A DNA stretch of 64,000 bases from NCBI GenBank assembly GCA_951406725.2, contig OX597829.1:31248001-31312000 (forward strand), written 5' to 3'. The first letter of the stretch is position 1. The number at the start of each line of letters is the position of its first letter. Both the position numbers and the translations under genes were made by a program. Of this stretch, positions 1,816-64,000 are shown piece after piece. The notes under the pieces were generated by a model. That model was not told where the DNA came from and did not search any database. It worked only from the letters and a program-made list of their open reading frames with translations. Source of the stretch: Octopus vulgaris. Lineage: Eukaryota.

Positions 1816-3250
1816 ATCATCATCATCATTCAACATCCATTTTCCATGCTGACATGGTTTGACAGGAACTGGTAAGGCCAGAGGTTGTACTAGGCTCCAT
1901 TGTTTGTTCTGGCATGGTTCCTTTGGCTGGATGTTCCTCCTAATGCCAACCACTTCACAGAGTGTTTACTGGGTGTTTTTTTATATGACACCAGTATGAG
2001 TGCTTTTAACACGAAACAATCACTAGTGCTCTTTAAGTGGTACCAGCACCAGAATCAATTTCCCTTTTTTCTTGGACAGCTCATTTTGAAAACAGCAGGG
2101 CTCCAGACATCTTAGTCCTTTGTTATCTCCTTCACAAGGCTCAGTGTCTTGAGATTGGCCTTCATTACTTTATCCCATGTCTTCCCCTTCCATAAGTTCC
2201 ATCCACTTTAAGTGATTGACACTTCGGTATACAACTGCCCTCATCCAAACACATCACATGACCAAACCAGTGCAGTCTTCTCTCTTGCACACTGCAGCTA
2301 TTTTCTCTTAAGCCTAACTTTTCCCTCAATGCATTTTGATTTTGTTGCGCATGTACACTGATGTTGCACATCAAGCAGAGCATACTAGCTTCATTCCTCT
2401 CTAGTCTTCACATTTCCTCTGCATTTAAGCCCCCATATCTCACCACCATATAGAATTGCTGTTCGTAAACATGCACCATACAACCTTCCATTAACTCAGA
2501 GATCGAGAAATTTGGTTGCCAACAGAGGCAAAAGCATTTTGAATTTTCTCTATCCTATTCTTATTCTAGCGATTATGCTTTCTGTACATCCTCCCCCACT
2601 ACTAATTAGGTCACCTAGGTAGCAGAAATTATCCACTACCTATAAAGAACTTCCGCAACATTTAAGAAAATCAATTTCCCAAGTAGTTCTTATGGCTCCT
2701 GTGCATCATCCACATACAAACACTACACTCTCTGATAACCTTATTATTCTATTGCACCTCTTGTGTGTCCATAACTTGCACTGGGTACACCAAATGGAAT
2801 TGTTGCCTACACCTTTCCTGCATATCAAGCTGAGCCATTTATCTAATGAGGGAAGGGTCCTGTCCATTTTCTTGCTTACTAGACCCCTAGTCTTTGCTAA
2901 GTTAACCTTAAGGTCCTTTGATTCCAAGTTTTACTTCCACATCTGGAATTTTTATTTCTAGTTCTGTTATAGAATCAACCATGAGAGCTAGATCATCAGC
3001 ATATAGCAGTTCCTGGGGGAAGCCAGTCTTGAATATTTCTGTTATGTCCTGGAGGACGATGATGAATAGGAGGGGACTGAGAACCAAACCCTGATGAATG
3101 CCTACATGCACACTAAATTCATACCTATACTCATGGTTAACTCTCACCTTACCAACAGAATCTATTCTACATGACCTGTACAGCTTTCAAAAGCTACTCA
3201 TCTGCCCCTAGCTTCCTCAGAGCCTACCATATCACACAGTGGGGTACACA
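1816..3250 (-). mobile_element. Decayed RTE-like LINE containing the reverse transcriptase domain
   Basis: Fragmented ORFs: GIHQGLVLSPLLF and ELLYADDLAL (RT motifs, 2908-3147), LKVNLAKT..CRKGVGNNSIWCTQC (2706-2927), RLHWFGHV..GRGR (2165-2383). The 3' tail is at 1816-1860. Confidence 0.9.
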
Positions 3251-41200: not shown

Positions 41201-41341
41201 GGGAGAATGTCCACCTTAAGATTTTAGTTCCAAGTGCAGCTGCTGGAGCCATTATTGGCAAAGGTGGAGAGACAATTGCACAAGTGCAGAAAGATGCAGG
41301 AGCCAGAGTAAAGATGTCGAAAGCTAATGATCATTATCCTG
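41201..41341 (+). CDS. Nova: Nova coding exon 2 (KH1, first part)
   Basis: TTACAG|GG...CCTG|GTAACT. Reads [46 protein letters not shown] with a GKGG loop. Phase 1-1. Confidence 0.96.
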
Positions 41342-41597
41342 GTAACTATTTTCTGTTTGTGAGGACTAACACATTTTTAGGTTATTAGCTGAGAAGTGGG
41401 GGGGCATTATAATTAACAAATGAAGACATCTGGATGAATGTAGTGAGTGTTTACAATGATTGTCTATTTTATTATCTTCTAGTCAAATAAAAGAATTATG
41501 AAAATGTTTTAGATTACTGATGTGGCAAATATCTTACTTTGACTAGTTTAAGTTGAGAAATAACTGATTTTAACTATAATTTGGTATGTCTTGGTGT

Positions 41598-41628
<31 letters not shown>

Positions 41629-41922
41629 ATAAAAGCTAATCTGTTTTAAAATTGAATATGTAGACCTAAGTTGTAAATTTTTTGCATGTTTGTTTTTTTT
41701 TTTTGGCAAATTTAAATTGGACTTAGTTTAATGATATCTTAATGTATTTGCATTATTTATTGCTTAAAATATTTAATTATTTTCTGTGTATGAATAGCAT
41801 ATTTTCTTCTCTTTAAAATCATTTTATGTCATAAAAATTGGAATATATTGAGGAGGCACCACATTTTGGTGATTTATTTTATTTATTAGATTAACAGTTT
41901 GTTATTTAAAAAAAATTTCCAG

Positions 41923-42068
41923 GGACATCCGAACGAGTGTGTCTTATAACTGGTTCAGTTGAAGCTGTTAGGAAAGTCCATACTTTTATTATGGAAAAAA
42001 TCAGGGAAAAACCAGAACCTAACCCCAAATTAGATGAAAATAAAAGTACCTATGAACGGCACCGGCAG
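41923..42068 (+). CDS. Nova: Nova coding exon 3 (KH1 end plus linker)
   Basis: TTCCAG|GG...CAG|GTAATA. Reads TSERVCLITGSVEAVRKVHTFIMEKIREKPEPNPKLDENKSTYERHRQ. Phase 1-0. Confidence 0.96.
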
Positions 42069-42760
42069 GTAATAATGTTATAAATTTTCTTTTATATTAT
42101 ACATATATATATATACACAAATATATATATATACACACAATATGCACATATATATATACATATTTATGCACATTATATATACTCACATTTGTATATACAT
42201 GTTTATATATATACATTTATAAATGTGTGCATATAATTATCCCCTTTGTGTGTGAGTGTGCGTGTGTACATATATAGTTTAGAGATGTATTTAAAGTAAA
42301 TAAAATCTATGAAGACTTAATTTTAATTTTTCATATTTTTGTCTACATACTTTAATTAATTTGTGTAACTGAGAAAAAATTGGAGGAAGTGCATGAAACT
42401 GAGGAAAATCTATTCTTAGTTACCTAAGCATCTTCCTTTCCAATTTGATTGAGTCGAATCTTTTGGAATTTCTGATATATTTGAAAGTAGATTAATAATA
42501 TTGTTAAATTATATTTAACTATAGTTTTTGTTCATTTTGCTTTTTCATTTTGTTAATGCTACTAAATCAGTGGTCAGAATTAGCTCTTCTACCTCCAACC
42601 CAGGCAGCAAGAGCCCTTTATTAAATAGGCTGTCTGATAGGCTGCTATTTCCAAACTATAAAGTTTCTCTTACATCACCTTCTGATCTGCTCACTTTCCT
42701 TACTTTTTGTACATACTGAAATCCCAAAATAGGTTAAAAAGAAATCATTCTTACTTTCAG

Positions 42761-42832
42761 ACAATAGATTTAGCTGCTCCAACCCAATTTGACAGGCTCC
42801 AGCCCTCTGATAGTCTAGAACCATTTTTACAG
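42761..42832 (+). CDS. Candidate 72-nt cassette exon between KH1 and KH2 (TIDLAAPTQFDRLQPSDSLEPFLQ)
   Basis: Acceptor TCATTCTTACTTTCAG|ACA and donor TTACAG|GTCAGA. It is 24 codons, phase 0-0, matching the host intron, with no stop. Confidence 0.65.
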
Positions 42833-43793
42833 GTCAGAGAGTCCTTTGAACTTTTTGAAACCGCTAAGGTCAAGTTTTGGCCTTTTTATTTACATATGGC
42901 TGGACATTTTGTTTCAGTATTCAAGGAAATTGAAATTGTATTCCAAACCATTTATTGATGGTAATAAATGTTCAAATAAATATATAATATATATTTTGAT
43001 CTAGCTCTGAATGTATAGGAAGTTCTTACTAAAGTATGTTTACTGTGGATGAGAACTCATTTTTATATATTTAGAAATGTTAAACATTACTATATTTTAG
43101 TACAAAATTCTTAAGGATGACTTTATTTGGAAATTAAGCATGTTATTTAAGTATATATATATATATATATATATATTTTATATATATATATATATACACA
43201 CATACATATATTAGCTGGTTTTTACATGATGATCAGGTCACTGCTGCCTCCTCTTTCCAACTGCATTCAGCATGTCCAAATTAATTTAGCATTTACCTGT
43301 TTCATTTTTAAGGCTAAGACAGTTCTGCATTTTATAATAAATAACTGTTAACCACATTTGTTTGATTTGGTCCTTGATTTAGTAATGAATTATAGTTAGT
43401 TTGTTTTTTATACAGTTTGAACATTAGTCAACTAAAGATATGAAATTGTCTTATAGTATGTTATACTAATGAAATATTTATTCAAATCTCTCCAAAAATT
43501 TGCTGATAATTTTTAATTTCACAAAAAAAAAAACCTGTGGTTAACTAAATAAAAATAAGAATTTTATTAAAAAAGTTTTTCTTAAATATTTTAAAATGTA
43601 ACAGACAATAGATCATTTTTAACAAGATTAACAATTTAAATTTGGTTTGATACATATAAAGTCATTCATTTTGATCATAAAAAAATCATAATTAATTTGT
43701 AACTGAATCAAAATTAAAGCTATTTATGTATTTATTATCTAATGCTCCATGTTTGTTTTTAATTATTAATTGTTGTTTTACCAATGTTTTCAG

Positions 43794-43947
43794 GTGAAAA
43801 TCTTAGTCCCTAATAGTACTGCAGGAATGATAATTGGTAAAGGTGGCATTTATATAAAACAAATTAAGGAGGAAAGTGGAGCGTATGTGCAGATATCTCA
43901 AAAGTCAAAAGAAACAAATTTGCCAGAACGCTGTGTAACAGTTGCAG
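43794..43947 (+). CDS. Nova: Nova coding exon 4 (KH2)
   Basis: TTTTCAG|GTG...GCAG|GTGAGT. Reads [51 protein letters not shown]. Phase 0-1. Confidence 0.97.
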
Positions 43948-44640
43948 GTGAGTGCAGCCTTGTTTTAGTGTGTTTATTGTATTTTGAATTATTGTTTGAA
44001 ACTGAATTTGTGACTAGGAAACAAGTTCTCTTGTGTAGTATTATTTTTAATTTTATGCATGTATTATGAAATTGTTTGACATTTTGAAAGCTGTGTTTTG
44101 CTGTAGTGTTTTGAATTAAAACATTGTGAACTTGATGATTTGTTGTCTTGGGCAGATTTTTACTAGTGACCATCCATCTATAATAAAGTTGGACTCTTTT
44201 CTTTTTATAAATTACATTGCATTTGTTATTTAGTTGCCATAAGCCTATTTATTATATTTATATTGCAAATGACTTTGGTATATTTATCACTAAAATTTAT
44301 AAACCATTCTATATTTAAATACTTAATAGGGTGTTGGTGGGTAAATTATGAATTTCTAAGAAATTTGTTTATCTGTTCCGGACTCTGCATTTGTTGCTAC
44401 TGAATATTTCTTGTCATCTTGACTTAGAAAAACAGCTCCTAAATATTTTTATTAAATGTTTAGTATGTAGCCCTATATTATCTATTTTAGTAACTTGGCT
44501 GAAATGTTAATACATTCATTGTTTAGAAAATTATTGTAAATAAGGTAGTTTTTGTTTAATACTTTTTCTTAAATTTTAGTTAGTCTAAACTGTTTTTTTT
44601 TTCCATTTTTTTTTTTTCCTTCTCAATCTTTGTTTTGTAG

Positions 44641-45806
44641 GTGATGTTGAGTCCAACAGAAGAGCTGTTGACATGATATTACAGAAGATTGTTGAAGATC
44701 CTCAAAGTGGAAGCTGTCCAAATATCAGTTATGCAGATTACACAGGACCAGTGGCCAGTGCTAATCCTACCGGGTCCCCTTTCGCTAACACGGACTATAT
44801 ACAAAACAGAAGTACAGAGATAGGATTAGCTAATAATAACTTTGGTGCTTTTGGTTTTGGTTTTAATGGAAATGCCTTTGGAAACAATATAGGAGCTAGC
44901 ATGACGAATCTGAACTTGAATGCAGCTTTAAGTGGTGGCACTAGTAATAGCATTAACAGTACAGCTTTGGATAACATAAAAATAACTCTGCGAGGAAATG
45001 GATTTTCAGATCAAGCAACCGAAGAAATAAGTACTGCCATGAACACTTTAGCTAGCTATGGTATATTAGCTAGTATGGGTTTAGGAATGGGCAGTTTGAA
45101 TAATTTGGCAAACTTAGGAACTGGAAGCGGTCTAGGAACAGGACTGAATCTTAATTCATCTGGCTTGCAAGGCTCTAGCATGATGTCAAGTAGTACAACT
45201 TCAACCACAAGTGTGAGCAGCCCTTTCTTTAACACTACCACCAGTACTAACAGTGCTGGTAGCCTTTTTGGTCCAGTTGGCAGTGGGTCATCCGGATTAG
45301 GAAGTTCAGGCTCCACTGGAGCCAACTCTAGTCTTTTCAGTAATTCCTCTCCTAGTATTGGCAACGAAAGATATGGGGGAAGTCCAATGCTTAATGATTC
45401 ATTTGGCAATGCTGCTAATTATCCCAGCAATCCTGGGTTCACTGGAACTCCAAGCATAGCTGGCGACAGGTCTCCTAATGTTAATCAAAATTCTTTTGGC
45501 CTCGGAACTGGCATCTATAGCCCTGCTGATGACAAATCAGCCCCGGCAACTAAGCAAGAGATGGAGGTTCCGGAGACAATTGTTGGAGCTATCCTGGGAC
45601 CTGGCGGGAAAGGCATCGTGGAAATACAACAGTTCACGGGCACCAACATTCAGATTTCAAAAAAAGGAGTCTATGTACCTGGTACCCGTAATCGTGTTGT
45701 CACCATAACTGGTACTCCTAACAACATTTCCAAAGCCCAGTTATTTATCCAGCGGCGCCTCCAGCAAGAGGAAATGAAGAGGGCTCGTCAAGCTTCTACC
45801 CGTTAG
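44641..45806 (+). CDS. Nova: Nova last coding exon (KH2 end, long G/S/N-rich linker, KH3, stop)
   Basis: Long pyrimidine tract ending TTGTAG|GT. Contains KIVEDPQSGSCPNISYA..GPVASANPTGSPFA (Nova signature) and KH3 EVPETIVGAILGPGGKGIVEIQQFTGTNIQISKKG..PGTRNRVVTITG. TAG at 45804-45806. Confidence 0.97.
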
Positions 45807-46028
45807 GGTACCCTCTCCCGCCATTTCATTGCACGGAAATTCCCCCTTTTTCTTTCTTTTTTCTTTTTTTTTCTTAAATCCTCTCTCCCTCACTCTCTCA
45901 CCCATTCCTCTTTTTTTTTCTTAACTTCTCCCACTTTCATTTAAACATTTTTATTTATTTTATTTTATATTTTTTGAAATCAAATTAAACCCATCCCGAA
46001 TCCTAACCATAAATATAATTCAAACAAA

Positions 46029-46063
<35 letters not shown>

Positions 46064-46283
46064 CATATATATACATATATATATATGCACAGACACACAT
46101 ACACACGTGTGCGCGCATACATATTCATGCATATTCAAATAAGCACGCCATGTACATACATGTGTGTCTGTGTATATACGCATATAGGTGCGAGTATATA
46201 TGTATGTATATACTACACTCATACACTTTTGTGTATTTGTGTGAATATGTGTGTGTGTGTGTGTATATATATATATGTGTATA

Positions 46284-46317
<34 letters not shown>

Positions 46318-49115
46318 CAAAAATCATTTTCCTCTTTCCACAGCCTTGGAAATAGGAATAGAAAACTTAAATACATTGCCTCTCCAATTTCTAGATATAA
46401 CAAGATGAAAGCTAACCTTTTTTTCTTTATTTTTTCATCAAATTCATTCAGTATATAATTCATTTATAAATTAAATTTCAAATGCTCTAAATGAATCCCA
46501 TACAGCCTCAGAAGTGTTTAGTATCACATGCACACATACATCCATATACAATTACATACACACACACACTCACATGCATATATCTTCTCAAGGTGGGGAA
46601 AATTGAAATGCCTATGTTAATGAGCTTTTTTAGTGTTACGTTTTGTGTTTATATATATAAATGTATATATGTGTATGAATGTGTTTATGTGTTTAATTGG
46701 TATTTTTTACGTCTGTTTTCCATGCTATCATGGATTTAGATGTTCTAAATATGGATATTTTCATGAACTGTGTGACTGTGTGTGTGCCTTGTGCATTGTG
46801 TGTATATATTTGTATATGTTTGTGTGTGTATATATATGTGTATATGTATATACATACATACATACATAAATGTGCACACAGATTTTTTTGATTATATCTT
46901 TTGAGTTTTTATTTATATTAATTTAATGCTTTGAAAATATTTGTAAAAAATCAAAAATTGAAAAAAATCTATTTAAAATGTTACACTCATCGTATTCATA
47001 TTCTAGAAATAAGATACATTCTAATCTGGATATCTAATCATCAGTATGTTCTAAAATCGTTTAAGAACGTTTTGGTTTTATTTATTTATTTTTTTTTCAA
47101 ATGGAAATCATAACTTTAATGTTCAGGTCAAATTTGTTAGCTAATTGAGGCATTTATTTCTATATTTTTTAAATGTTTCTAGATTTTACATAATTTATTC
47201 AATAGCTATCTGATTGCCATATTCTCACTACAGAAAATCATCAATTTTTGTCTGATTGTCATAAACATGTTTGTGGCTGAGTTTAATGTATTCTGATAAA
47301 TCTTACATCTTATAGTGAAAAGGTTGGCTTAATTTGAATTTCTGGTAGTTGGAAAGACAAAGTGACTATTTCTGTTATTTTCTTTTTGATTCACAGAGGC
47401 TTCCCTGAATATTATGAAAATGGAATGTGGTATTGAAATATCTGTTGCAGTCTCTTCAAGCAGCTTTAAAAACTGTTTTATTGAACCAAAATAGAATTAA
47501 CTTTTCAGTGCTTAGGTCAAAATTTGTCTTTCACTGATACTTCTCATCAAGTATCAAAATATGTAGGTTGGCCTAAGATGAAAAAGAAATCTTGAGCAAG
47601 AAAGATGGTTATACCTGATTATAACATTATACATTCATTATTGTTTCATTTTGCAAAAAGAAAAATAACAAAAAAAGACAAAAAAAAGAAAAAAAATATG
47701 AAGATAAAATGTAAAAAAAAAAAATCATTCTCTTTTTATTTTCCTAATAACCTATGTTTATTATATCAATGATTTATTAACTCGTATTTCAGAGCACCTA
47801 TGTAATGAGAAATCAAAATCATCTTAATTCTATTAAAGCAATTTTTCACCCTATAGATTCCATAAAATCTCCACATATCTATCTCTAAACTCTATTTATA
47901 CCTATTTATATCCATGTATTTATATTGGTTATATCAACCTTTTTCCTTGCATAAATAACTTCTAATTTCTAAACATCTCATTATTTGATTTATATTTTCC
48001 TCATTAAAATGTTTTAGTCTCTAAATTTCAGTTCAATTGTTATAGAATTTAATATTAAAATATATATTTATATATAGTATGTATATATATGTATATATAT
48101 ATGCATACGTATATATCTTGTTGCAATGTTACAGTGATTCAGTGATTATAGTTTTCAATACTGTTGCCCTGTTTTGTAATGTACTAGTTTCTAGTAGCTC
48201 CACACATACACACACACAAAATAAAACCCATCCTTTAATGTTTGTAATTCATTTGCAGAATTTAAAATATTTACTCCATAAAGTACTTTAAGTTACACAT
48301 GCTTCTAAATAGCTCTAATTTAAATCTTGTCTGATGAGAGAAACTTTACTCTATAATAGTCTTGTACTTATATTAGATATTGAAAATATTTTAAGTATTT
48401 CTAAAAAATTTTAAGCACATTTTGTGTGTGTGTTAGTCTCTGTCTTTTAGCAAGGTGTCTCATTTCATTAGGGTTTTAGGTGAATCCTTTAGCTTAGGTT
48501 ACATAGTTAATTTTCTCTCTATTATTTTGCTATCAATATTTATTCGTGAGTGTAATCTTCACAGCATTTTATTTAACAATTGTATATGAAATGATTAATA
48601 GTTAGTCATGTGTCAGTAGATTTATACTCTTCCTTTTCATGTTGCATACATATTTTTGGAGAATTTAATTAAGGAAACAATGTAACAAAAGGCATTTTAA
48701 TGCAATTATCTTCAGGTGTTTTCTTCTGAATCTTAATATTTTAATCTTAAAAGTAGTTATGAATACACTATTTTCACAGCTTTCTAAATATGCAATCAAT
48801 TTTGAACTTTCCATTTATTTGTGCAATTACGTCATCATGATTGTACTATATTAATACTATTTTATCTTCTAAACCATGACAATATTTCATTGAAACTATG
48901 AGTATATGATATTTGGTTTCATTTAATTAGATAGTTTGATGTTACACCCCATTCTATCAGTATATTTTACTAAGGCTAATCACTGAACTATCTAGTTGTT
49001 ACATTTTTTGCATGTTAGCACATTTTATTTAATTAGAAATTACATTTTGCAAAGTGAACTCTATGCAAATATTTTGCCTTAATATTGGAAATGGTTAAGA
49101 TATATAGTCCTAGTC

Positions 49116-49155
<40 letters not shown>

Positions 49156-50028
49156 GATTTGCTAATGCAACAATTTAATGTAAAATTTCATTTTTTGAGG
49201 TATGGCTTGAAAATATCTAAAGTGAAAGAGGAAAGCAAAACATTTACAATACTAAACACTTCAAAGGCAATTATTAATTTTCCATCTATTTATTTTAAAT
49301 TGCAGTGTCATTGTTTGAATCATAGAGGCTTTGTGTTATCACCTAAGGGATATGTATATCATTTGTATATACATACACATGCATATTCTACATATACATA
49401 CATACATTCACACACATACATTTGTACCCCTCTTTCATTTTTCCTATCCCTTTAAAATCTGATATATTTTTTAAATTATCATTTCATTATTTGATTATTT
49501 TGTTTTAGGGGGCATTTACAGTTCCAAGAATGGCTGCACCTTTTTCTTCCATTTTTATGGTCAGCAGAGATATCTGGAATTATAAAGAATGATGCCTTCT
49601 GCTCATACCAACTTACAATGTGCCAGATATTTTTTATTACACAGCAAAGATGATGTACATGTTTGCATTGTATATTTAAATTTTGCAATAATATAGTTAT
49701 TCATGTGATATAATGAAAATTTTCATAAGTCTCTCTGCTAATCAGAATCAAGTAGAAAGGCTTCATAACTAGTCACAATAACTTTACTCTATACTACATA
49801 AGCACCAATAAATTGTCAAGATATGACTACTATACATCATTTTCACTCTCCCTCTAAAAAAAAAAACTAAAACTAAATAGATCTATTTAAAATGCTAACA
49901 ACATTTTGTCATAGTCTGTTAAAATTTTCCAATATTTACTTTTATATATGTATATATATATATGTATTCATGCACACATATGCACATATATACACACACA
50001 CACATACACAATGAAGCATATATGTATA

Positions 50029-50075
<47 letters not shown>

Positions 50076-52502
50076 CATATCAGGGTGTGTGTGTGTATAT
50101 ATATGTTTGTGTGTGTGTGTGTGTGTAGTTTAAAGGTGAGCAATATCTCCTCATGCTGAAAGCCGTTTGAAGCTGGCATGGTCATAACAGAAAAAGCAAT
50201 TGTTAAGTTTGCACATTTTGTTGGTCAATAATATATTTTGATATATTGCTTTTACCATTTGTTTACATGCCTGCTAATAGCAACAGCTATGCTATGAGTG
50301 CATAACGCATATTGGAAATTTATTCTTCCATGTTAACACTCATTTGATGGTTCCTTCCAATCTTTTTATATTTCTGTGCTCACTGTTCACATTTAGTTTG
50401 TATTTGCAAAATTAATCTTCAATTTTAATCTGAAGAAAAAAAATCACACAACATAGAAAAATGATTGATTCAGCTTTCACTTTATTTATGTGTGTGTGTG
50501 TGTTTGTGTGTATATGTGTTTTGTGTATATTATATATACACACATACATGCGCACACACATGTACATACCCATGCATACACATGAAGGTAGTATCATTTG
50601 ATATAGTGATTTAAGGTACAAGTTGAAAAAAAAACTGTTATTTGCACCTGACATATTTATCATTAGAAATTTCATTATATGCTATATAAATGATTATACG
50701 AAATTGGAATTGTTTATTTGAATATATAGTGCAAAAATGCTGTGTTTTTGCTATGTAATTAAAACATGTTGTGCTCAGAAATAAAAGCGGCCATTTTTTT
50801 AGGAAAGCTTTGTGAATCATACATCTGTGCATGAGTTCCAAATTGTGGAAAGACAAGAAAATGGATTTTCTCTTAATGCTGCGGTGTCACCCATGTGTGT
50901 TTGTGTGACTAATCAACCAATCACTTCCAGGTGTGTCCACTCTACTTTGCCCTCTTCTATATTCTCACAAAAGGAAAAAGTGGCATACTTACAGGGCTGT
51001 GCATCTTCGTTTTTCACTAATAGTCATACCAGAATTGGTTGCATAATGTACATTAAAACACAAGCCATTAGTCCTTGCATTGCTGTATATAATTCACCCA
51101 CAAACTCTGGCTGTAGCCATCACTCTCATGTGCCCATCTGTGACAATGCACGGATCACACTAGGAAATGTAACATGGGCACTCATTAAATTTTTTTTTAT
51201 AGTCAAGTTAACACACTAAAATATGACATTGCTCAGGCATTTGAGGAAAGTTAAAAGTTGTGAGGTCAGTGAAATATTATTTGTATTGATGATGATTATC
51301 ATTCCAAGGTTATATAATTTTTCATTTTTCCTCTTCAGACAGATGGCTTATGTAATGTCATAATATATTTTCTAGCTGTTGGATCGACATTGAAGAAGAA
51401 ACCTTTATATATTATATATTGTTTTTTTTTTTTGTTTTTTTCCCCCCTCCCCGTTAGAAAAATGTCAGCTTGAACATTATCTTCGATATTTGTTCAACTG
51501 CTTTACCTTGTATTTCTTATCTGTCACATTCAGTTTGTTACTGTTATTGTATAGTATAAATTTTTTAGGGGGTCTTGGGAAAAAAAAATTCTGCAAAATC
51601 TGTCCTATCCAAAGGAAGTAATTTTTTTTATTTAGTTTCATTTCCTTTTTCTTGTACTGCCTTAAAGGCTTAAATTATTTCATGGCAGTCATTTTTTTTT
51701 CTTTTATCCCCTCTGCCCCTCCTTTTTTGGTTGATTAGATTAACAAGCTTTTGTTTGGTAAATTGTGAGAGAAAGCAATGAAATGGAGACTTTTTTTTCT
51801 TTTTTTCTTCTCTCTATGACTTATTGAGGCTATTACTTCTGTACCACTTCGCCATAAAATTTCCATTCATGCAGGAAGAATAATTGTTCATATTGATTAT
51901 TCTTCCATCCCTTCAATCTGCCACACTATTACAAAACAATCGTAACTATTTAGCCACTACAATATTGCAATGACATATTTATTTAGGAATTTGTTGTATT
52001 CATTTTCTCCTGCAAAAAATAAACTAGCAGCTTTTTAGCCATTCTTTATTTCCATTCTCCTCCCCGCTTCTAACACTCTTTTACCCAATATTCACTTTTT
52101 CTGTTTCAATTCCAGTTACACTCATTTACTGGTTCCAGCAAGAATGTTGTGGCCATGCTGGTTACTCTTTTATCTTAGATATCAAGTTAATATTTAAATG
52201 CTATTAGCATTAGAAAGTATGTCCTCTTCATCTATAATATCTTTAGATAATGGCCTTTTAGTTTGTTTTTCTTTTCATTTGATATATTGATATTTTACTG
52301 ATGCCAAAATGGCAGAATTACTTATCTCCTTTCCCAGTTTCTTCCTAATATTTAGATGCGAAGTGCCATCTGTATTTATATGGTTTTTCTTCACATTTTC
52401 TTCTTTACCCCTTTATTTTATTTTCAAGTAGAATGTTTGATTGCCGCAATAGTTATCTATGAAAATTAATAAATCCCCACAGTCTTTTATTGTTTATACA
52501 CA

Positions 52503-52552
<50 letters not shown>

Positions 52553-52734
52553 GTGGTGTGTGTTTATATATATCTGTATATAATTTACACACACACTTTA
52601 GTGTAACAGTAAGCTGCCACAATAGTTGTCTCATTACCGTGAGTGATAGATGAACTTGATTACATGTTCTTAATTCAACTGTTTGTGTATATGTGTGAAT
52701 ATATAACATACATGTGTAACATGTTTGTGTGTGC

Positions 52735-52792
<58 letters not shown>

Positions 52793-52830
52793 AATGTTGC
52801 AAAAGGAAAATAGAAACTATATGTGGCAAT

Positions 52831-53264
52831 GTAAGGGGAAAGTAAAGAGGAAAATAAATGAAAATGAACATTGGAAATCAAAAAAAAGTCGAAGCTTTTT
52901 TTATGAAAAGTAATGAAAGATATATACAATTGGATGAACTGAGGTAGGAATAAAAGTAATAGGTCATTATTGGGAATTGTTGGAGATTTAAAAGTATAAC
53001 CGTTTCATAAATTACTAATCATTGCTTTGTATACAGGTATTCATTGCTTTGAATGCACGTCCATTCTAAGTAATGATTAGTAATTTATGAAAGTTATGCT
53101 TTTAAATCTCTTTAACAATTCACAATGATTTTTATTACTTTTATTCTTACCTCAATTCATTTAATTGTATATATCTTTTGTTATTTTTCATAAAAAAGGC
53201 ATGACTCTTTTTTTTTTATTTCCAGTGTGCATTTTCGCTTATTTTTCTTCTTGCTTACCACTAT

Positions 53265-53266
<2 letters not shown>
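52831..53266 (+). repeat. Long imperfect inverted repeat (~200-nt arms, ~38-nt loop at ~53029-53066)
   Basis: For example TTTCATAAATTACTAATCATT pairs with AATGATTAGTAATTTATGAAA, GATATATACAATT with AATTGTATATATC, and GAATAAAAGTAATA with TATTACTTTTATTC. Confidence 0.92.
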
Positions 53267-53295
<29 letters not shown>

Positions 53296-56200
53296 AACAC
53301 ATGCACTGCAATTATATTCAACATTTTGAGCTATGGGAGTAATCATTCTGCAATACTTCTATTTTCATTGGCCTCTTATTTTCTTTTTAAGCATTTCTTT
53401 AAGAAAATTATAAAATCATAAGATTAGTTTCTGCTTTAAAATACCATTTTTCTGCACATATCCTGTTCTCATCACTTGAATGTTTTTCTAAAGAAAATAA
53501 TGGTCACATAAACATAATCCCATGCAACACTCATGCATACATACAAACATACACATGCATTTGTTCATTCACTCATTCAAATGCATATTTATATTCTAAT
53601 CAGATACATAAATGCATACAGATTACACATGCATCCTTATTTTTTCCTCAGACATATACAGTTATATATGCATTTGCTTATATATATATATATATGTATG
53701 TATATATATATATATATCGTCATTACTAGCTTCATACATTTATCCACAGACACTCTTGACTTATAAGAGTTTATTTAACATTCTTGCAATCTCTCTGCAG
53801 GGAATATTCATACCTTAAAATTAAGGTAATCTATTGTGATATATAGAGGCATAATGTTTAGGGCTATAACGGGTACTTGTCTACTCGATGAGCCTAGCTG
53901 TTGTCCAACCAAGAATAGATTGTTCTATCAATATCTTGCATTAATAACATTCTGTACATGCATATGTGTGCATACACATACTTTTGTGTGTCACACTCTT
54001 ATGTTCACAAATTAATATAAAATATTAGTTTGTGAATACACACACATAATATATATATATATACATATATATATATATTTCAGTTTTATACATAAGAATA
54101 TTAGAATATATTATTTCCAGACACCCAGATTTAAAAATCTTGTAATTTTAGTATTTCCTGGATATCTCACATCAATTATTTTCCAGTAAGCATGTTGAAA
54201 ATTTTCATGCAATATATGTATATAGATCAAAAGCAAGGTCATATTCTGATATCCTTATCTTCAGAGCAATTTAAAGCTTCTGTGATATTGAAAGTTCTTC
54301 AGGCAGTGCATATTTCAAGCATTTAAAAGTGGTCTTATAAATTAGTTATTTGACTAAAACAAAGAGCTTGGCTGGGCCAATAAACTATTTGGTACAATTT
54401 GAAGATATGACAAGTTGCTGATTGATTCATTTTTATTACATCAAAAGGACTTCATGTTAATCTAGTTGACTCAAGTATAACATTTTCTTCACAGTTAAAC
54501 TGTTTTCTGATGTTGGTGTTTTGCGTGAAATTGAATTGTACTAATTTAAACGAATGTTTATTTCAATATTCACTGTTATATCATATGTAAAGTTTCAAAG
54601 TTCAAGGGTGGATAGTTGTGAGTGCTTATAAATTTGTTAGCTTGTTATTTTATTGCTAATATGATAATAAAATAAGACTTTACCAATGGATGTTTTTTTT
54701 TTTATTTTGTTTGTACTCTTATCTCTATCTACCTTTCTCCCCATTCCTCTTGGTTGGACAATAGTGATTTTGGATTCTAGTGTTTGCTGGGGCTTGTAGT
54801 GTCCTTTGTTCATTGGCTGTGTCAAATACTTGTAGCCCTATATTGGTCACTCAGGGAAAGAACAGTCATTTGGAATGAAAAGTTTATTCACTTGCAGTTG
54901 TAATCATTGATTGTTCCAAAGAGTTTTAGACTCAAGAAGTTTATATAAATATATCATTCATAACCATTTATTTCAATTAAGTTATTAAATACATGTATTA
55001 TATAACAATGCTACATAATCAACCTGATTAGTTTGTTTTATTGCAATCAGCAGATACATTAAAATTTACTTTACAATTATATAATTATACTAGTTATTGA
55101 AAAAATACTTATTAGATTGTCATAGTTTAGTAAAAAAAAAAAAATTCCATTATTAGCATTATATTTAATACATAACCATTTTAAAATGTATATTAAAACA
55201 TTTAAACTATTAAATTCAATTTACTTATATTCCTAATTGAAAAATAACTCATAGATTTACTTTCTAGCATTTGCTTCTATATCAAATTATCTAATCAGGC
55301 TCGTATGTGTGTATGTATTGGTATGGTTGCCAAGTCGGATGTCTATTTCCTAAAGAGCAAATTACAATAGAAATTATCTCCCCTTCTTTCTTGAGTAGCG
55401 CTTTAGTTAAAAACGAAATGAGGTTATTCTGTTGAAGGCATTCACTCTAGAACTGAAAGGATATTGTCTGACTGTCAGTCTAATAAATTACTATTCTGAT
55501 TCCATTCCTGCTTGGATAAAAATAATTTTAGTTTCTTTCAATATTTACTGATGCAATAGGTCTTGAAAGTTTTCGTTGTTTTTAGCATTTTAGGGTTTTT
55601 TCTTTTTTTTCTAACTGCAATATCTTAATGTCTTCAACTTTTCAGTTCATAGTAGTGTATATATAATAGGCTGCTGAATGTATAGTAGATGTGTGCATTT
55701 ACCTTATATTTGAATCTGCCTCTTCACATGAATGAATGTATTACAATCCATCAAAGACCTAATTTTGGCCAACACATTATGTACATGTGCACACATTCTT
55801 GTACCAGTCCATTGTTGCTCATTGAAAGTTGAATAATTTGTGTGTACATGTGCATATATACATAATGCATAATATGTGATATTAATAGAAAGAATAATTA
55901 TTTCTATTACAAATTTATACTTTAGCATACTTTAGAAGTAGATTTTTGCTTGGCTTCTTTAAAATTATTGTAATTCTTCATGGAAATACAATAGATTGAT
56001 TTAGGAAGAACCTAAACAGCAAGTATTTTTAAGTGTTTCATGTCATCAAATTTTGCATTTCTCAAACACTTCAAACAAGAGGTTTGGGAGTCTGGGATTG
56101 TTGGTGAAAATGGCAAAAGTATTTCAAATACTGGAGAAAAATATCATTAGCATAATTTACAAAAAGTTTCTGACTGGAGTTACAATGAGGATGCTTCTGA

Positions 56201-57165
56201 TGTGACTTGCAGTATCTTAATACAGAATATTCATTGTGGTAGTATCTTAGTAAGAAGACTGGCTGTTTTGTTGGTCTAATGATAAATGAAAAGAAACAAC
56301 ACAATGTACTTGAAAATTTAGTAAAGCATTGTACTATCTATGCTTCTTGGGGCACTGTTGAGGATTAAGAATTTGTAATATATCTGATACTTGTCAGGTT
56401 GGCAAGAGCCCATTTCTCTTTACCAATTCAAGTTTTCAAAAATGGTAAATTATTTTTATGGTGCTACCTGCCTCTTAGAACAATACATTACTCTGTAGTA
56501 GTTATTGCCGGGTGGATTAGACCATTGAGAATTAGTGTCTTTGCTCAACATAATTCAGTATGTCAGTAGCCTGAGCACTATGCCAATAAGAGCAGTTGTC
56601 TTTCTCATTTCAACACATGATTACAATAATTCTGGAGATTCCATTTGTTTTGTTTTGATAAGCATTAATCACGCTTACCATTAAGACAAAAATGTCATCT
56701 GAAACTTAATTTCTTAACAGTTCATTATGGATTTTAATATATGGCAAGAGCTAGGAAAATATTACATCTTTAGGAGTAATAAATTTTATAAAGATTAGGT
56801 GACACATTAGACCATGAACATTTTTGATCTCCTCTTTGATTTGTTTTCCTCAACGTCTGACAAAAGGAAACTCTTGTAAAGATAGTTTTTAATGCATAGC
56901 AGCTGAATTATTTCTGTTGTATGCCTCATTTGTTTTTAATTTGACTGACAGACCAATTAATTAGTATAAATCCAGTGGAACTTGCCTTTGTAGATGAAGG
57001 AAGATATATGGTCCTGCCTTATGGAATAGATATTGGTTTATATGAGAGATTCCTTTCTTTCATTTCAATTACTGAATTATGCCACTGTTCTGGAGATATT
57101 TCACCGCTATTTCTTCATATGTACATACATGCATATATATGAATATTTATATGAACATATTTTCA

Positions 57166-57216
<51 letters not shown>

Positions 57217-57914
57217 GTATACACACAATAAATATGTAGTATATGTTTAGTTAAAATTAATGGTGAATCATTGGGTTTTGGCTCTTGCCCTCTTTTTGCG
57301 CGTGTGTGTGGAAATTTGTAGACATGGTAATTTTGCTTTCCATATAATTAGTGAGTTACAAATGCCTTTCTTAATACTCTGACATTAATTTTAGACTGAA
57401 ATTATATCTTTATCCACCAACTTAGATATGTTCAACCCTTAGTATTTTTTTTTAAGCACCAACTTTGAAGGATGTTAGCTGATGAAATATAAAGTTGAAA
57501 TTTTCAAAGTTGTCAGTTTTGATGCTTTAACGCTATCAAAATATGTAAGTAGCCTTATAGTGACACTGTCATGTTACTTGGAGACATATAGAGGAGAAAC
57601 TGAATTTGGTTTTTAAAGTTGTAAAATATAAGTTTTCTATTTTAGTTCTTGGATTTTTTCTTTTTTTACAAATTTTTGTGAAGCTGAGTTTGTTAATCTG
57701 AACAAAAATGCTTGTTCAGTAGAAGAAATTTAAAGATAGCTAGGAATATTTTTCAGTGCTATTGGAAAGTATCTATTCTTTAAGGGAAGTAGATTTGTTT
57801 TTTTATTTGCTATAGTTTTTGATATCACAGAAAGAAAACATTCTGATCATTTGGATAGCATCAATATATGTATTTCTAGCTTTATCAAATAGAATATATA
57901 AATATATGAACCAT

Positions 57915-58055
57915 ATGCTCTGAGTTCAAATCCTGCCAAGGTCAACTTGGCCTTTCATTCTTCCAAAGTTGATAAAATGAGGTACCAGTCAAGTACTAGG
58001 CTCAATATAATTGACTCTTCCTAACTCCCTAAAATTCAGGCCTTGTATCAATGTT
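57915..58055 (+). mobile_element. SINE fragment, same family as 27185-27330
   Basis: GAGTTCAAATCC (B box) GGTCAACTTGGCCTTTCATTC..GATAAAATGAGGTACCAGTC. Confidence 0.65.
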
Positions 58056-59635
58056 ATAAAAATTTACTAGTGTTTTATCTATATATATATATATATAAAA
58101 CTTACATTACAGTACCGAGTATTAAAGTCAGGCATTTTTAACGATATGAGCATTTTTCCTTTTTTTTTTTTTTCTAATTTCAAAAAGTTTCATCTCCCAT
58201 TAGTTAGATTCATACAGAAGACAGACTTTTGATTTGAAATTTTTTTTTTTTTCCAGTCATTATCATTTTCTTGTTATTGATCTCTTAGTATAATAATGTC
58301 CTCTTGAACCAAGTAAAATTAGTTTTTATCAATATTGAGGATTCTCATTTCTTAGTTCATTTTGATAATTCTAATGAAATAATTTGTGCATACGTAAATA
58401 AATACATACATACATACACCAAACTTTCATTTTGAATATTTTTTAAGTTCATCACAGAAAAAAAGAATCAGACTGTCATTTAATCCATTTTCAATTTTTC
58501 CTCTATCTCTTTTTAAAAACTTCCTCAAGACAGTGTATGTGATAAACTAGGGAATCACTGTCCAAATTTCTGTACACCTCAGTTCTGTGAACTTCAGTCT
58601 ATATGATGTTGCCTTTCTTTAAGTGCCTGTCCACACTAATTTAGACGGTATTTAAATTTAAAAAAAAAAATAAAATAAAAATAATAAACAAAACCAAGCA
58701 TTACAAATTATCAGAAAGAACGAAAACATGACTTCAAAAGGTTCCCATTCTATCAAGCTTTATATTTGTGTGTGTGCATATACAATTGTATAAATGTGTT
58801 TGTGTTTATATACATGTGTGTGTGTGTGTATGTATGTTTATGTAAATGTAATACCTTCAAGAAATAATTTGTGAATAATTGGTACATTTATTGTTTACAA
58901 AGTGCAAAAGTTTTTAAAAAAGGACATCTTTCATCATTGCAGTTACATTCAGTTTAAATTGATTACACACATCTTTCAGTGAAGTAATGTTTTATCCCTT
59001 ACTTGAGGTTTAATGAAATTAAGCAGTTTGTTTACAGCACAGCGAGTTTATTTAATTTTTTTTTTTTTCATGTTTTTAGTATTAGTTTTGATAATTCTTG
59101 CCATTGTATTATGGAGTTGTACCTTTTTTTATTATTATTAATGGGTTTTCATTTGCAATTTTTCAGATTTTTTTTTTTTAAACAATAAGAAAAAGTATCT
59201 TTAGTCTCCTAAATGGTGGTAATACAAACTGATGTAACTCTTTGAAACTCTACTTTTTGTTGAATAAAATAACAGATAATTATAGAACCCTTACCCTCTT
59301 TTTTCATAAATCAAAATTAGGTTTATTTAATTTAATCTGATTGGTTGTTAATGAAATTAAACATAAAGTGCTATTTTATCTTGTATTTCATTGTTTACTA
59401 ATTTTTCAAAGTTTTATCCGTCCGCTGGGGTTTATTATTCGTTCCCGTCCCATTGATTAGTGTTATTTTAATGATTTAAGTATCCAGAATACCATGTCCA
59501 AGTTTGCATGTAGTAAGTGTAGCATAAAATGTTATTGCATATTCTGGTTAGTTTGTATTTATGGGACTAGGTTTATGATTTAAGGTGTTTTGTTTTTATA
59601 GGCATTAGGAGTACATTTGTTGTGTGTGTGTGTGT

Positions 59636-59686
<51 letters not shown>

Positions 59687-60902
59687 TTATAAATTCTTGT
59701 TTGACTTTGTTGCATAAAAATGTTTAGTTTTTTTATATAAGAGAATTCACACAAAAAGGTTTAAAAGTGCATTTACTTACACTTTCCAATCAAGAATTAA
59801 CTTCATGGAAAGCCTGAATATTCTCTAACTATTCAGTTTGTTTTAATTAATTTTTCAACACAGTGTATAATTTCAGTTTTATATACAATAGTTCTCAAAA
59901 ATATTGAAATTAAATTTGAAAATTTAATTAATTTTTTTTTTTTCCTATTTGGTTTAAATTAGTTCAAAATGAAAACTCTTGAAGTCATATCTTTCTGATG
60001 AACAAAAATTGAATTTAGGTAATTATCTTTATTGTTGAAAACTTAAGCCGTTATTCCTAAAGTTAATCAATATTTAGAAAATTAAACATTTAATTAGTGG
60101 ATAAATAGGGACTGGTATTGTTTTGTTAGTGTGGATAGGCACAAAACACTAATCAAATGTAATTTTCAACCTTTCCAATCCTATAAATATAAGACTATAC
60201 AAAATATTTATCTTTTCCTTTACAAGGTATTTGTTAAAAGTGATTTTAAATATGAAAAATAACTGATATGTATGTGCTGGGAAAAAGTTGGTTATCTAGT
60301 GGGTTTTACTTTATTTTTCTCTCTCAATAGTGTGGATGTTGAACACTTCATTTTATTGGAGTCTTGTATGTTGGAGTATTTTTTTTTAATAATAGTGGTG
60401 AAATAAGGTTAAATCTTATTAAAAGAACAGTTGAAAAGTATTTTATTCTTGTTAGGCATTGGCAATTTCTGTAGCTTTATAGCATTAGCTTTAGGCTGAC
60501 TAACATGTGAGAAAAATTTTTACACACCAAAAAAAAAAAACCCCATTTAGAAGAATAAAATTATTTTCAAATTAGTTTCTCGGTATAAGCATCTAAATTT
60601 ACATACCAAGCACTTTTATTTTTAAGCCTGTATTAGTTTACATTCATTGTAATATGATTTTGTTATATTTTAATTCTTTGTTATGTATTTTAATTTTACT
60701 AAATTCCTAAAAAATTTTTTTCAACCTTTGTATCTTTGAATATTTTTATTTTTCACAGTTATGCTTTCAAGTTTATATTGGTGATTACTGTAGATGTAAA
60801 TTAAATTTCAAGTATATTTTTTACCCATAAAAAGGTTTTAGGTAGATATTTCAACTAATATATATACATGTATATATATATATATGTATGTATATATATA
60901 TG

Positions 60903-60939
<37 letters not shown>

Positions 60940-63900
60940 TACAATAACATCTTTCTTGCTCATTTCTTTTTTAATTCAATATAAAACCTAGTTTCTCTGA
61001 ACACTGAATAAGATTATTCAAATATTCTAGGTAAATTACATTATTTTAAGAGCTTTTATATTATTATTTTTTTTTACTAATTTATATTTGGTTCATTTGT
61101 CAACCATCTGGCTTATGATAGGTAGAACTATATTTCTAACCATTGATAAATTAGTGTTAATTAGTAACTGCTATGTTTCTTAATTTCTCTCTTCAACTTA
61201 ACGCTAGACTTTGCTGGTTTTTAACTTATGGGTTGCTGATAGAATGGGACCTTTGAACAGTTATGTTTGACATCATCCTATCCCTTTTCACAACATACAC
61301 ATTATCTAGATGATCCATTAACTTTACAGTGCTCTCAAATATTTTCATTTTTTTTTTCTCTCTTCTTCTTCCCCTCCATTTTATTTATTTGGTAATTATA
61401 TTTTTAGCAGACCATAATGATAGTCTGTTTATTTCTATTTGAAACTTGTACTCACATATTTTGCAGCAGTCAGAAACATTGCAATGCTGTAAAAAAATAT
61501 ATATATATAAAAAATATGAAAAAAATTGTACATTATAAGAAACTCCCGAATAAAGTGTTCAACAGCTACATAACTGGGATTAACTTAGTAAAATTAAAAC
61601 TTCGTTTATTAACCGCTGCAAATCTCCTACATAGCAACAGAATCTCTATTGATCATCTATTGCATTCAGAACCCCATTCTTATAATTACTATTATTATTT
61701 CATTCTTCTAATTCAATTATGAATTGAAAGTTTATACTTTATTGATTAACATTAATAATTCCATGAAAAAAAAAAAGATAGGTCCTGCTAAGCAAATTTT
61801 TTTTTTTTTTTTTTAATAAAGAATTTGTCATTGTTTTTTCTGCTATACATTAACATAAACATAAATGTCCTTACAATTGTATACTTCTTTATATCAATAT
61901 TGGTTCAAAGGCATTCCTTGATTCTATATGACAGTTTTTAACAGACTTATTACATTTTCGAACATTCACAAATTCGGAAGCTGTCCTGTTTTTTGTTTTT
62001 TTTTTTAAAAAAAAAGCTTCAACATATTTGCATGTCATGCAATTTTTATTTGACTTTTTATGAATTAATTCCTCCATCCAACCATCCTTTCTATAAAAAA
62101 AAATATAAAATAAAATGAAAAACAAAAACAACCCATCCCACCTTTTTTTTTTGCAGCAAAACAAAAAGATAAATATATTTAGCTGAGTCTATGTCATGGG
62201 TATTTGCAGCGGTTAGCTATCATTTAATTGTGATTAGGTGATGTCTTGTTGGTTGTTTTTTTTTCTTTTTTTCTTTTTTTTTTATTCGCTTGATGCTGAT
62301 TAAGGTTGTTGGTCCCCAGTTGCTGTTGTTGAATCCTGAATATATCATAATTTTAGTCATCCATGATATGTAAACAGCATCTTACCATATGTTACACTCT
62401 CAGTATTTAAATTGTTCTCTAAGAAAACTTATTACATTTCATGCTCAACTACATATACCCATCCTGTGACTATTTGCAAATTTTTACTTAGTATGTTCAA
62501 TAATGATGAAATGCCTTTCTAGCACTGAGTTTGGCATTCATGGTAGTAAGTTTAAGTAATTAGTAAGATATGTAATAAAGAAAATTCACCAGTGATCAGT
62601 TATTATTTATACTTAAGAAGTAGTTTGGTTTTTCTTTTTTTTCTTTGCTTTTTCAATATATGTTATATATTAAAGACATTTTATTTAGCAATATAAATGG
62701 ACTTGGTTTATATATATTTTCAATGTTTCATTTCATTGTTTGATAGATTCAAAAGTTTATTAGACACTTTAATTTTGCTTTGTAAATTCAAGAGATAAAA
62801 ATTTCTTAATTACAACTAATAACTGGTCCTTTTCAGTTAATAAGTTTATAGTTTCACTGATATATAAAAAAAAAAAGCAAAAACCATTTAGCATTTTTTT
62901 TTTTTTTTTAAGATTTTTTGGATCCAAAGAGAGAATATAAACAAACAAAAAAGGACTGCCCCCTCCCTCCCTCATAGTTGCAAATGTTATTTTAAGATAC
63001 TTTGCAACACTCAATTATCTTGAAGAAAAAAAAATATTGAAAAGTTGCAAAGATATGTATTGCCTATTTACATTTGTTACTGCAAATGTCTTTCATTATC
63101 AGTTTTGTACTTTATTGTTAGCAAAATGGACTCTGACATGTTCTCTTTCTAGCCATAGTATGCTGAAAGAAGGCTTTCATGATGACAACACCTGGAAATT
63201 GAAACTGGCATATTAAGATTAAGACACAATTGATGAGAATATGGTATTTAAAAAAAAAATAATAACAAACAACTTAAAACCCAGGAAAGATAGGTGAAAG
63301 TGGACTTTTTTTTCTTTTTAGGGTGGGTGGTAGGGTAGGCAAATATTTTGTAGGTTTCTTAATTTTATAGTAAATTATTGCTATTGTGGTTCCAAATAAT
63401 TTATTGATTTTGTGTAATTTCTAATTTTATTCAGATCTAATTTAATAGTTTTGTTTTTATTGATTTTTGTTAATTCTTTGGTTTATATATAAAAATATTT
63501 GCCATTTTTTTCAAATTCACCTTTCTACCTTTCTTTCCTTTTTCACCTCCCTAAATTAAAATGAAATAATAATAATAATAAAAAAAAATCTTTCATGTTA
63601 AAATTAACTTATATATAATATCCTGTAGTTTTAAATTATAGATTAAAAGTTATTACACTATTGAAAACACACCCAGGTCATTTGCTGCTTTCTATTTCTC
63701 ATATATATTCCCTGGGAGCTTTTGCAGCAATCAAAACCTTTGCAGAAAAATCTTTTCAGAGTAACTGCACATCTTGGATTATTATTTGTAGATGTTTGCC
63801 ACATTTTGTTTGATTTGAAAAATTTTTTCTTAGAAGTTGTTGATGGAAAAAAGAAAAAATTGCTAAATTTTGCAGTTAAATTTTTTTTTAAATGAACTGT

Positions 63901-64000
63901 ACTGTGGGCCCGGTCCATTTAGCTTTTTATTGATGTTTTCTTTGTTTTTAATGCTTTGTTGTTTTTTTTTTTCAGTGATTAAGAAGCCTGTGCTAGATTT

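Follow-up and report, generated by a model that had tools for sequence, protein, structure and literature searches.

A Penelope-like fold-back downstream of an octopus Nova-like gene: a probable ADAR substrate with a one-sided, probably neutral, excess of G-U pairs

Among described systems, the closest to the locus analyzed here are Penelope-like retroelements of the EN+ type (with a Neptune/Nematis-type linker) and hyper-edited palindromic repeats. The former encode a C-terminal GIY-YIG domain after the reverse transcriptase (RT) and a CX2-5CxxC linker, and their insertions show strong 5' truncation, an inverted truncated copy joined head-to-head and a preference for (TA)n (as described in parts of PMC3846280 and PMC8557442); Penelope-like elements have been reported in octopus as well (PMC13282606, in the portion cited). 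The latter, exemplified by frog Harbinger, lizard Penelope and coleoid 3' UTR repeats, fold on themselves and need no distant partner, and in the portions of these sources cited here octopus is placed among the most hyper-edited animals, with palindromic repeats as prime targets (PMC5625713), and ubiquitous squid edits are located in repeats of 3' UTRs and introns (PMC9068888). The hairpin that we describe lies in a 64,000-nucleotide stretch of the Octopus vulgaris genome (contig OX597829.1, positions 31,248,001 to 31,312,000), hereafter the window, to which all coordinates refer unless a family copy is named. It shares the listed traits of both groups, the coding ones through its family. It differs from the EN+ elements in that this copy consists of two inverted ends without an ORF and that the hammerhead core was not found in the ends scanned; the linker motif would suit the Neptune/Nematis clade. 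It differs from the hyper-edited palindromic repeats in that its palindrome was produced by insertion rather than by a consensus that is itself palindromic, and in a one-sided excess of G-U pairs that is absent in the sister copies. Drosophila hpRNA endo-siRNA loci and inverted-Alu 3' UTR duplexes are also long, imperfect, G-U-rich duplexes in Pol II transcripts; the present hairpin derives from a Penelope-like element rather than from a gene duplication or an Alu pair, and is known here from sequence.

The hairpin itself is real (Table 1). When the left arm is aligned, in a strand-neutral manner, with the reverse-complemented right arm, the result is 164 Watson-Crick pairs, 18 G-U pairs, 3 A-C mismatches, 7 transversion mismatches and 10 gap columns, and none of five gap settings alters the numbers of G-U, A-C and transversion positions. 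The original prediction had reckoned with about 15 G-U against about 2 A-C, close to these values, and had left the transversion mismatches unmentioned; it had proposed a binomial test and folding of both strands, which yield, respectively, p=0.0015 (two-sided) and a minimum free energy for 52831-53267 of -213.6 kcal/mol on the + strand versus -164.4 kcal/mol on the - strand, the better fold being that of the + strand. For the longer interval 52700-53300, the corresponding z scores against 20 shuffles are -42 and -27. The predicted + strand RNA duplex is about 190 bp long, and the flanking (GT)n/(TG)n and (AC)n tracts, which had been suspected of extending the stem, are indeed base-paired in the + strand structure, with about 77 nt looped out before the stem.

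Table 1. Coordinates of the hairpin, the candidate edited sites and the surrounding features in the window
Feature	Coordinates	Strand	Basis or remark
Left arm of the predicted RNA duplex	52831-53025	+	alignment, fold
Right arm of the predicted RNA duplex	53070-53267	+	alignment, fold
Loop/junction with 22-nt direct duplication	53026-53069	+	duplication also in other family copies
(TG)17(TA)17 microsatellite, left end	52722-52789		target site or tail
TATA(CA)n(TA)n microsatellite, right end	53262-53295		sequence
5'-truncated 3' end (pseudo-LTR region) of Penelope-like element	52790-53058	- (element sense)	3' end abuts (TA)n; 82-87% identity to family copies
Second, shorter copy of this element end, inverted (head-to-head)	53059-53267	+ (element sense)	
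Unpaired overhang of the left copy	52790-52830	+	relative to the family majority, A>G twice and C>T twice; 52827 ambiguous
Six A>G sites, left arm	52918, 52924, 52926, 52929, 52946, 52952	+	single 370-nt X1 contig across the loop; probable A-to-I editing
Nine A>G sites, right arm	53087, 53091, 53092, 53104, 53105, 53106, 53155, 53164, 53169	+	
Nova-like gene	41215-45806	+	KH1 exon piece 41215-41322, KH2 exon 43794-43949, last coding exon with KH3, stop 45806
Steady T>A skew region	1-64000	+	-0.04 to -0.09 per 6 kb; continues to ~72,000 (window coordinates)

Judged by their sequence, both arms come from the 3' end of a high-copy Penelope-like element and are joined head-to-head, and there is little doubt that the hairpin is a fold-back of this family. 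A search of the octopus genome (2.8 Gb, microsatellite-rich) returned 1412 candidates, and all 40 that were scored match. The family copies possess one fixed end adjoining (TA)n and another end that is variably truncated, and the longer copies carry RT, linker zinc-finger and GIY-YIG motifs on the strand pointing to the TA end. One frame of a long copy, L100, contains SFDV, GIAMG and YLDD, which we take to be RT motifs (an assignment at the motif level), followed downstream by LIY..YIGQTG, a GIY-YIG-type motif, with CGQPNCGTC (CxxxCxxC) as the linker upstream of the latter; the C-terminal ORF of L100 has an atlas feature score of 0.96 to GIY-YIG clusters, of whose members 13-56% carry PF01541. 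Pfam searches with the ORFs of L011 and L100 and a PDB sequence search with the RT piece produced no significant match. The hammerhead core CTGANGA is absent from the three ends scanned, and Rfam hammerhead models gave no match in L100 1300-3570.

Fold-backs are a recurrent product of this family. Among the 171 loci examined there are 15 inverted pairs (the hairpin under study and 14 others), all of them head-to-head, with differing junctions and loops of 7-1955 nt; in L100 and L102, an ORF lies between the arms. The latter two (L100 1300-3570, L102 1310-2537), being longer copies with an ORF remnant and an inverted 5' pseudo-LTR, are useful for classification of the family. Because Penelope-like elements make fold-backs on insertion, the existence of the hairpin needs no selection, and given that the inverted, truncated arrangement arises at insertion, the hairpin was born with it. 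Separately, we noticed CTACCTCA, presumably a let-7 8-mer target site, on the element sense strand at 52940-52947 and in copies L013 and L100, which may be due to chance; C>T at 53147 in the right arm shortens the match to it.

The upstream gene, called Nova in the original prediction, is Nova-like: its KH3 domain is most similar to Nova-2/Nova-1 (E 1e-20). The hairpin lies 7.0 kb beyond the stop codon, outside the coding sequence. The T>A skew, which upstream of the Nova region is -0.01 to +0.04, is consistent with a single + strand Nova transcription unit that would include the hairpin; strand, position and skew fit membership in a Nova 3' UTR without showing it. In mammals, Nova1 too undergoes RNA editing. 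AATAAA hexamers number 22 from the stop codon to the end of the window; two of these are in the left arm (52853 and 52949, + strand), and the X1 contig described below reads through both. With the limited repeat library used, the putative Nova unit (3300-64000) contains fewer common repeats than its flanks, mostly a few short fragments, and from the stop codon to 69 kb just two common-repeat fragments were detected besides microsatellite-like matches. Further observations in the window are a decayed RT fragment upstream (2165-3186, - strand; RVT_1, E 2e-8) and a weak Rfam match to the CPEB3 ribozyme (56149-56221, - strand; 24.7 bits against a gathering score of 35, E 0.01) that is probably fortuitous.

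The original prediction suggested, among several possible roles, that the hairpin is an ADAR hyper-editing substrate, and named lack of + strand transcription as grounds for abandoning the idea. At least half of the words of 52000-54000 are contained in 19 of the 22 sequencing runs listed, none of which is recorded as RNA; those of organisms C and D contain almost none of the words, to which no weight is given. Four runs were aligned over 52792-53260: X1, X6 and X10, which come from three studies and two organism codes, are transcriptome-sized (their RNA status is a guess) and consist of contigs rather than reads, and X18, which is large and swamped by paralogues. The X1, X6 and X10 contigs differ from the genome by A>G at 13, 4 and 8 places, respectively, which makes 15 listed differences altogether, every one of them A>G on the + strand; among the longest pieces listed for organism B, the differences are A>G and one poly-T indel. 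A>G is the sole type of base change in these contigs and none falls on a G-U position, so that an assembly error is an unlikely source of the G-U sites. The 370-nt X1 contig, which crosses the unique loop, accounts for 10 differences, 53164 and 53169 are A>G in all three probable RNA runs (and could be alleles), and 53087 and 53091 are supported by one contig at a depth of 3.4. For 13 of the 15 sites, at least 94% of the aligned family copies carry A, which argues that they are not bleed-through from paralogues; many family copies have G at the other two, 53104 and 53155, which are hence uninformative and were set aside. The 5' neighbor is A or T at every one of the 15 sites, but at 100 of the 137 adenosines that serve as background (p=0.009, or p=0.017 when the test is restricted to the 13 sites), and 14 of the 15 are opposite U.

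The region thus appears to be transcribed on the + strand, and it shows clustered A>G differences with the neighbor pattern of ADAR, as anticipated. The A>G sites include the adenosine of the inner A-C mismatch, 53155, a type of mismatch that the original prediction had named as preferred, although this site is ambiguous given the G in the family. Judging from these probable RNA contigs, it is very likely that the hairpin is transcribed in the sense of Nova and edited by ADAR, and we consider it highly probable that it forms an edited + strand duplex; against this stand the guessed RNA status of the runs and the derivation of six left-arm sites from one contig. As a side observation, the G-U-type change A>G at 53225 creates an AG behind a T12 tract (53204-53226, + strand), a strong-looking cryptic 3' splice site that the X1, X6 and X10 contigs pass unspliced.

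The excess of G-U pairs is the more difficult issue, for which selection on an RNA duplex was the explanation initially put forward. The arm-specific changes on the + strand, scored against the family majority over 174 sites, comprise 8 A>G, 8 C>T, 1 G>A and 8 of other kinds, with no T>C; because half of the G-U-type changes are C>T, editing alone cannot explain the excess. A bias inherited from the family can be rejected, given that the 14 other fold-backs pool to 49:70 (G-U:A-C) with no overdispersion (chi2 13.8 on 14), the most extreme being 1:8; this last fold-back, L112 1512-1897, is skewed in its own right (p=0.04). Transcription-linked asymmetry across the unit, which had been named as a possible alternative cause, is rejected as the sole cause: the five non-hairpin repeat fragments inside the Nova unit give 34:31 (103:109 for those outside), with rates of 12/219 for A>G, 7/233 for T>C, 22/191 for C>T and 24/222 for G>A, and under these in-unit rates p remains at 0.007 for 18 of 21 and at 0.0009 for the whole insertion (23:3). 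The unpaired parts of the insertion share the bias: the overhang and the loop have 3 A>G and 2 C>T against 0-1 opposite changes (77 sites; p=0.046-0.15), their frequency matching that in the stem.

In our judgment, the G-U excess has somewhat better than even prospects of a neutral origin, in strand-biased, deamination-type change compounded by chance. The selection reading is weakened by the lean of the unpaired parts (5:0-1), and also by divergence: among 95 aligned arms, the two of this hairpin have the highest values (10.6% and 11.2%, against a median of 4% in a sample weighted to young copies by searches that list near-consensus copies before others). The 7 transversion mismatches and 10 gap columns that have been tolerated favor a neutral origin, as do the T>A skew of the unit and the abundance of long inverted repeats (48 local ones within repeat-enriched loci that overlap in part and total 0.64 Mb). 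Furthermore, a p value near 1e-3 is weak when a striking hairpin is chosen after the fact among many inverted repeats. On these counts, the G-U asymmetry does not by itself establish selection. Several observations count against the neutral origin. The repeats in the unit are nearly symmetric, the lack of overdispersion among the other fold-backs argues against a general palindrome-linked strand bias, and the control formed by the unpaired parts comprises few changes. Paired parts, if they differ at all, have the lower share of transversions (5/330 versus 3/77 in unpaired parts, hand count, p=0.18). Five changes are common to both arms, against 0-4 in the other fold-backs, and these fit compensation, arm-to-arm conversion or a lost parent. 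The high divergence of the arms may reflect greater age alone.

Taken as a whole, the course of events that we regard as the most plausible, with moderate confidence, is that of a Penelope fold-back transcribed with Nova and edited by ADAR, whose G-U surplus reflects biased mutation and chance rather than selection. As its structure shows, insertion at a (TA)n/(TG)n microsatellite brought in a truncated copy together with an inverted shorter one, a near-perfect palindrome from the start. Nova transcription, either through a distal 3' UTR or by read-through, would then cross the hairpin, and the + strand RNA would fold into the duplex of about 190 bp. To go by the A>G-only differences, ADAR would deaminate both arms, mostly at A-U pairs, loosening the duplex and marking it as self. 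Finally, and this is the weakest step, the transitions that became fixed after insertion may have been chiefly A>G and C>T changes of the non-template strand, deamination-type changes that in a palindrome would read as G-U on the + strand and A-C on the - strand.

The strongest competitor to neutral origin, which we consider possible although clearly less probable, is that purifying selection maintains a long RNA duplex in the Nova 3' UTR, with A-C and transversion mismatches removed while G-U pairs drift through; in its full form, which we rate marginally lower still, a Penelope fold-back has been co-opted as an editing duplex of about 190 bp in a long octopus Nova 3' UTR and is kept paired by selection, possibly for ADAR or Staufen docking, nuclear retention or control of stability. 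The 18:3 ratio differs from that of the neighboring repeats (Fisher p=0.009) and of the first six other fold-backs pooled (22:27, p=0.0016), and survives correction for 15 fold-backs (p=0.022), although not comparison with the better strand of each other fold-back (Fisher p=0.15). G-U-type against all other mismatches, 16:9, exceeds the neutral share of 0.30 (p=0.0005), and the duplex appears to form in RNA. The five shared derived changes, including G-C to A-U at 53007/53088, could be compensatory, and pattern searches for a closer subfamily carrying them returned this locus alone; nevertheless, they may predate the fold-back or reflect arm-to-arm conversion. The same bias in unpaired parts, the seven retained transversion mismatches and several indels, and the choice of this copy after the fact weigh against the selection reading.

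The remaining alternatives are far less probable. The hairpin might have been copied in from an RNA already edited by ADAR, such that A>G was written into the DNA at insertion. The 8 A>G against 0 T>C on one strand (p=0.008) and the sufficiency of Penelope-like pseudo-LTRs for mobilization in trans (PMC3846280, in part) speak for such a copy, but it leaves 8 C>T against 1 G>A, several at CpG, unexplained (p=0.04), and the searches revealed no donor that has this junction or the shared changes; in its pure form, this scenario is rejected because half of the changes are C>T. Slightly less probable still is a hairpin-RNA gene whose Dicer products, endo-siRNAs, would silence the Penelope family: a long duplex 82-87% identical to more than a thousand candidate copies would suit such a role, but an Rfam scan of 44000-64000 found just microsatellite-driven miRNA matches below the gathering score, none on the stem, and heavy editing generally antagonizes Dicer. 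That the hairpin is a palindromic MITE, a DNA transposon with the arms as terminal inverted repeats, can be practically dismissed, its high copy number and TA-rich flanks notwithstanding, because most copies are one-armed, run into an ORF with RT and GIY-YIG motifs and are variably truncated, and the fold-backs vary in junction and loop where MITEs would be uniform, non-coding and bounded by two terminal repeats. The possibility, raised in the original prediction, of a high-copy repeat that has the same bias throughout is not borne out: the copy number is high, but the 14 other fold-backs are balanced.

Among the matches listed for the literature on octopus editing, octopus Penelope and wobble hairpins (titles and openings of abstracts), there is no description of this locus, and the word 'Nova' is absent from the main text of PMC9068888 and PMC9699675, the supplementary editing tables of which may list sites in the hairpin. 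As it stands, the hairpin is an ordinary product of two known processes, namely the inverted ends left by Penelope and the editing of repeat duplexes by cephalopod ADAR. It nevertheless provides a well-defined editing substrate near Nova, with an oddity, G-U 18 to A-C 3, that is absent in the sister copies and in the neighboring repeats. Should orthologs show no selection, the locus would serve as a caution that strand-biased mutation mimics selection on RNA structure in palindromes. Should they show selection, it would become a tangible example of a retrotransposon that connects ADAR with the neuronal splicing program of octopus; if co-option is true, a master neuronal splicing regulator would have come under ADAR/dsRNA control via a lineage-specific retrotransposon, and one-sided G-U excess would offer a single-genome screen for co-opted repeat hairpins.
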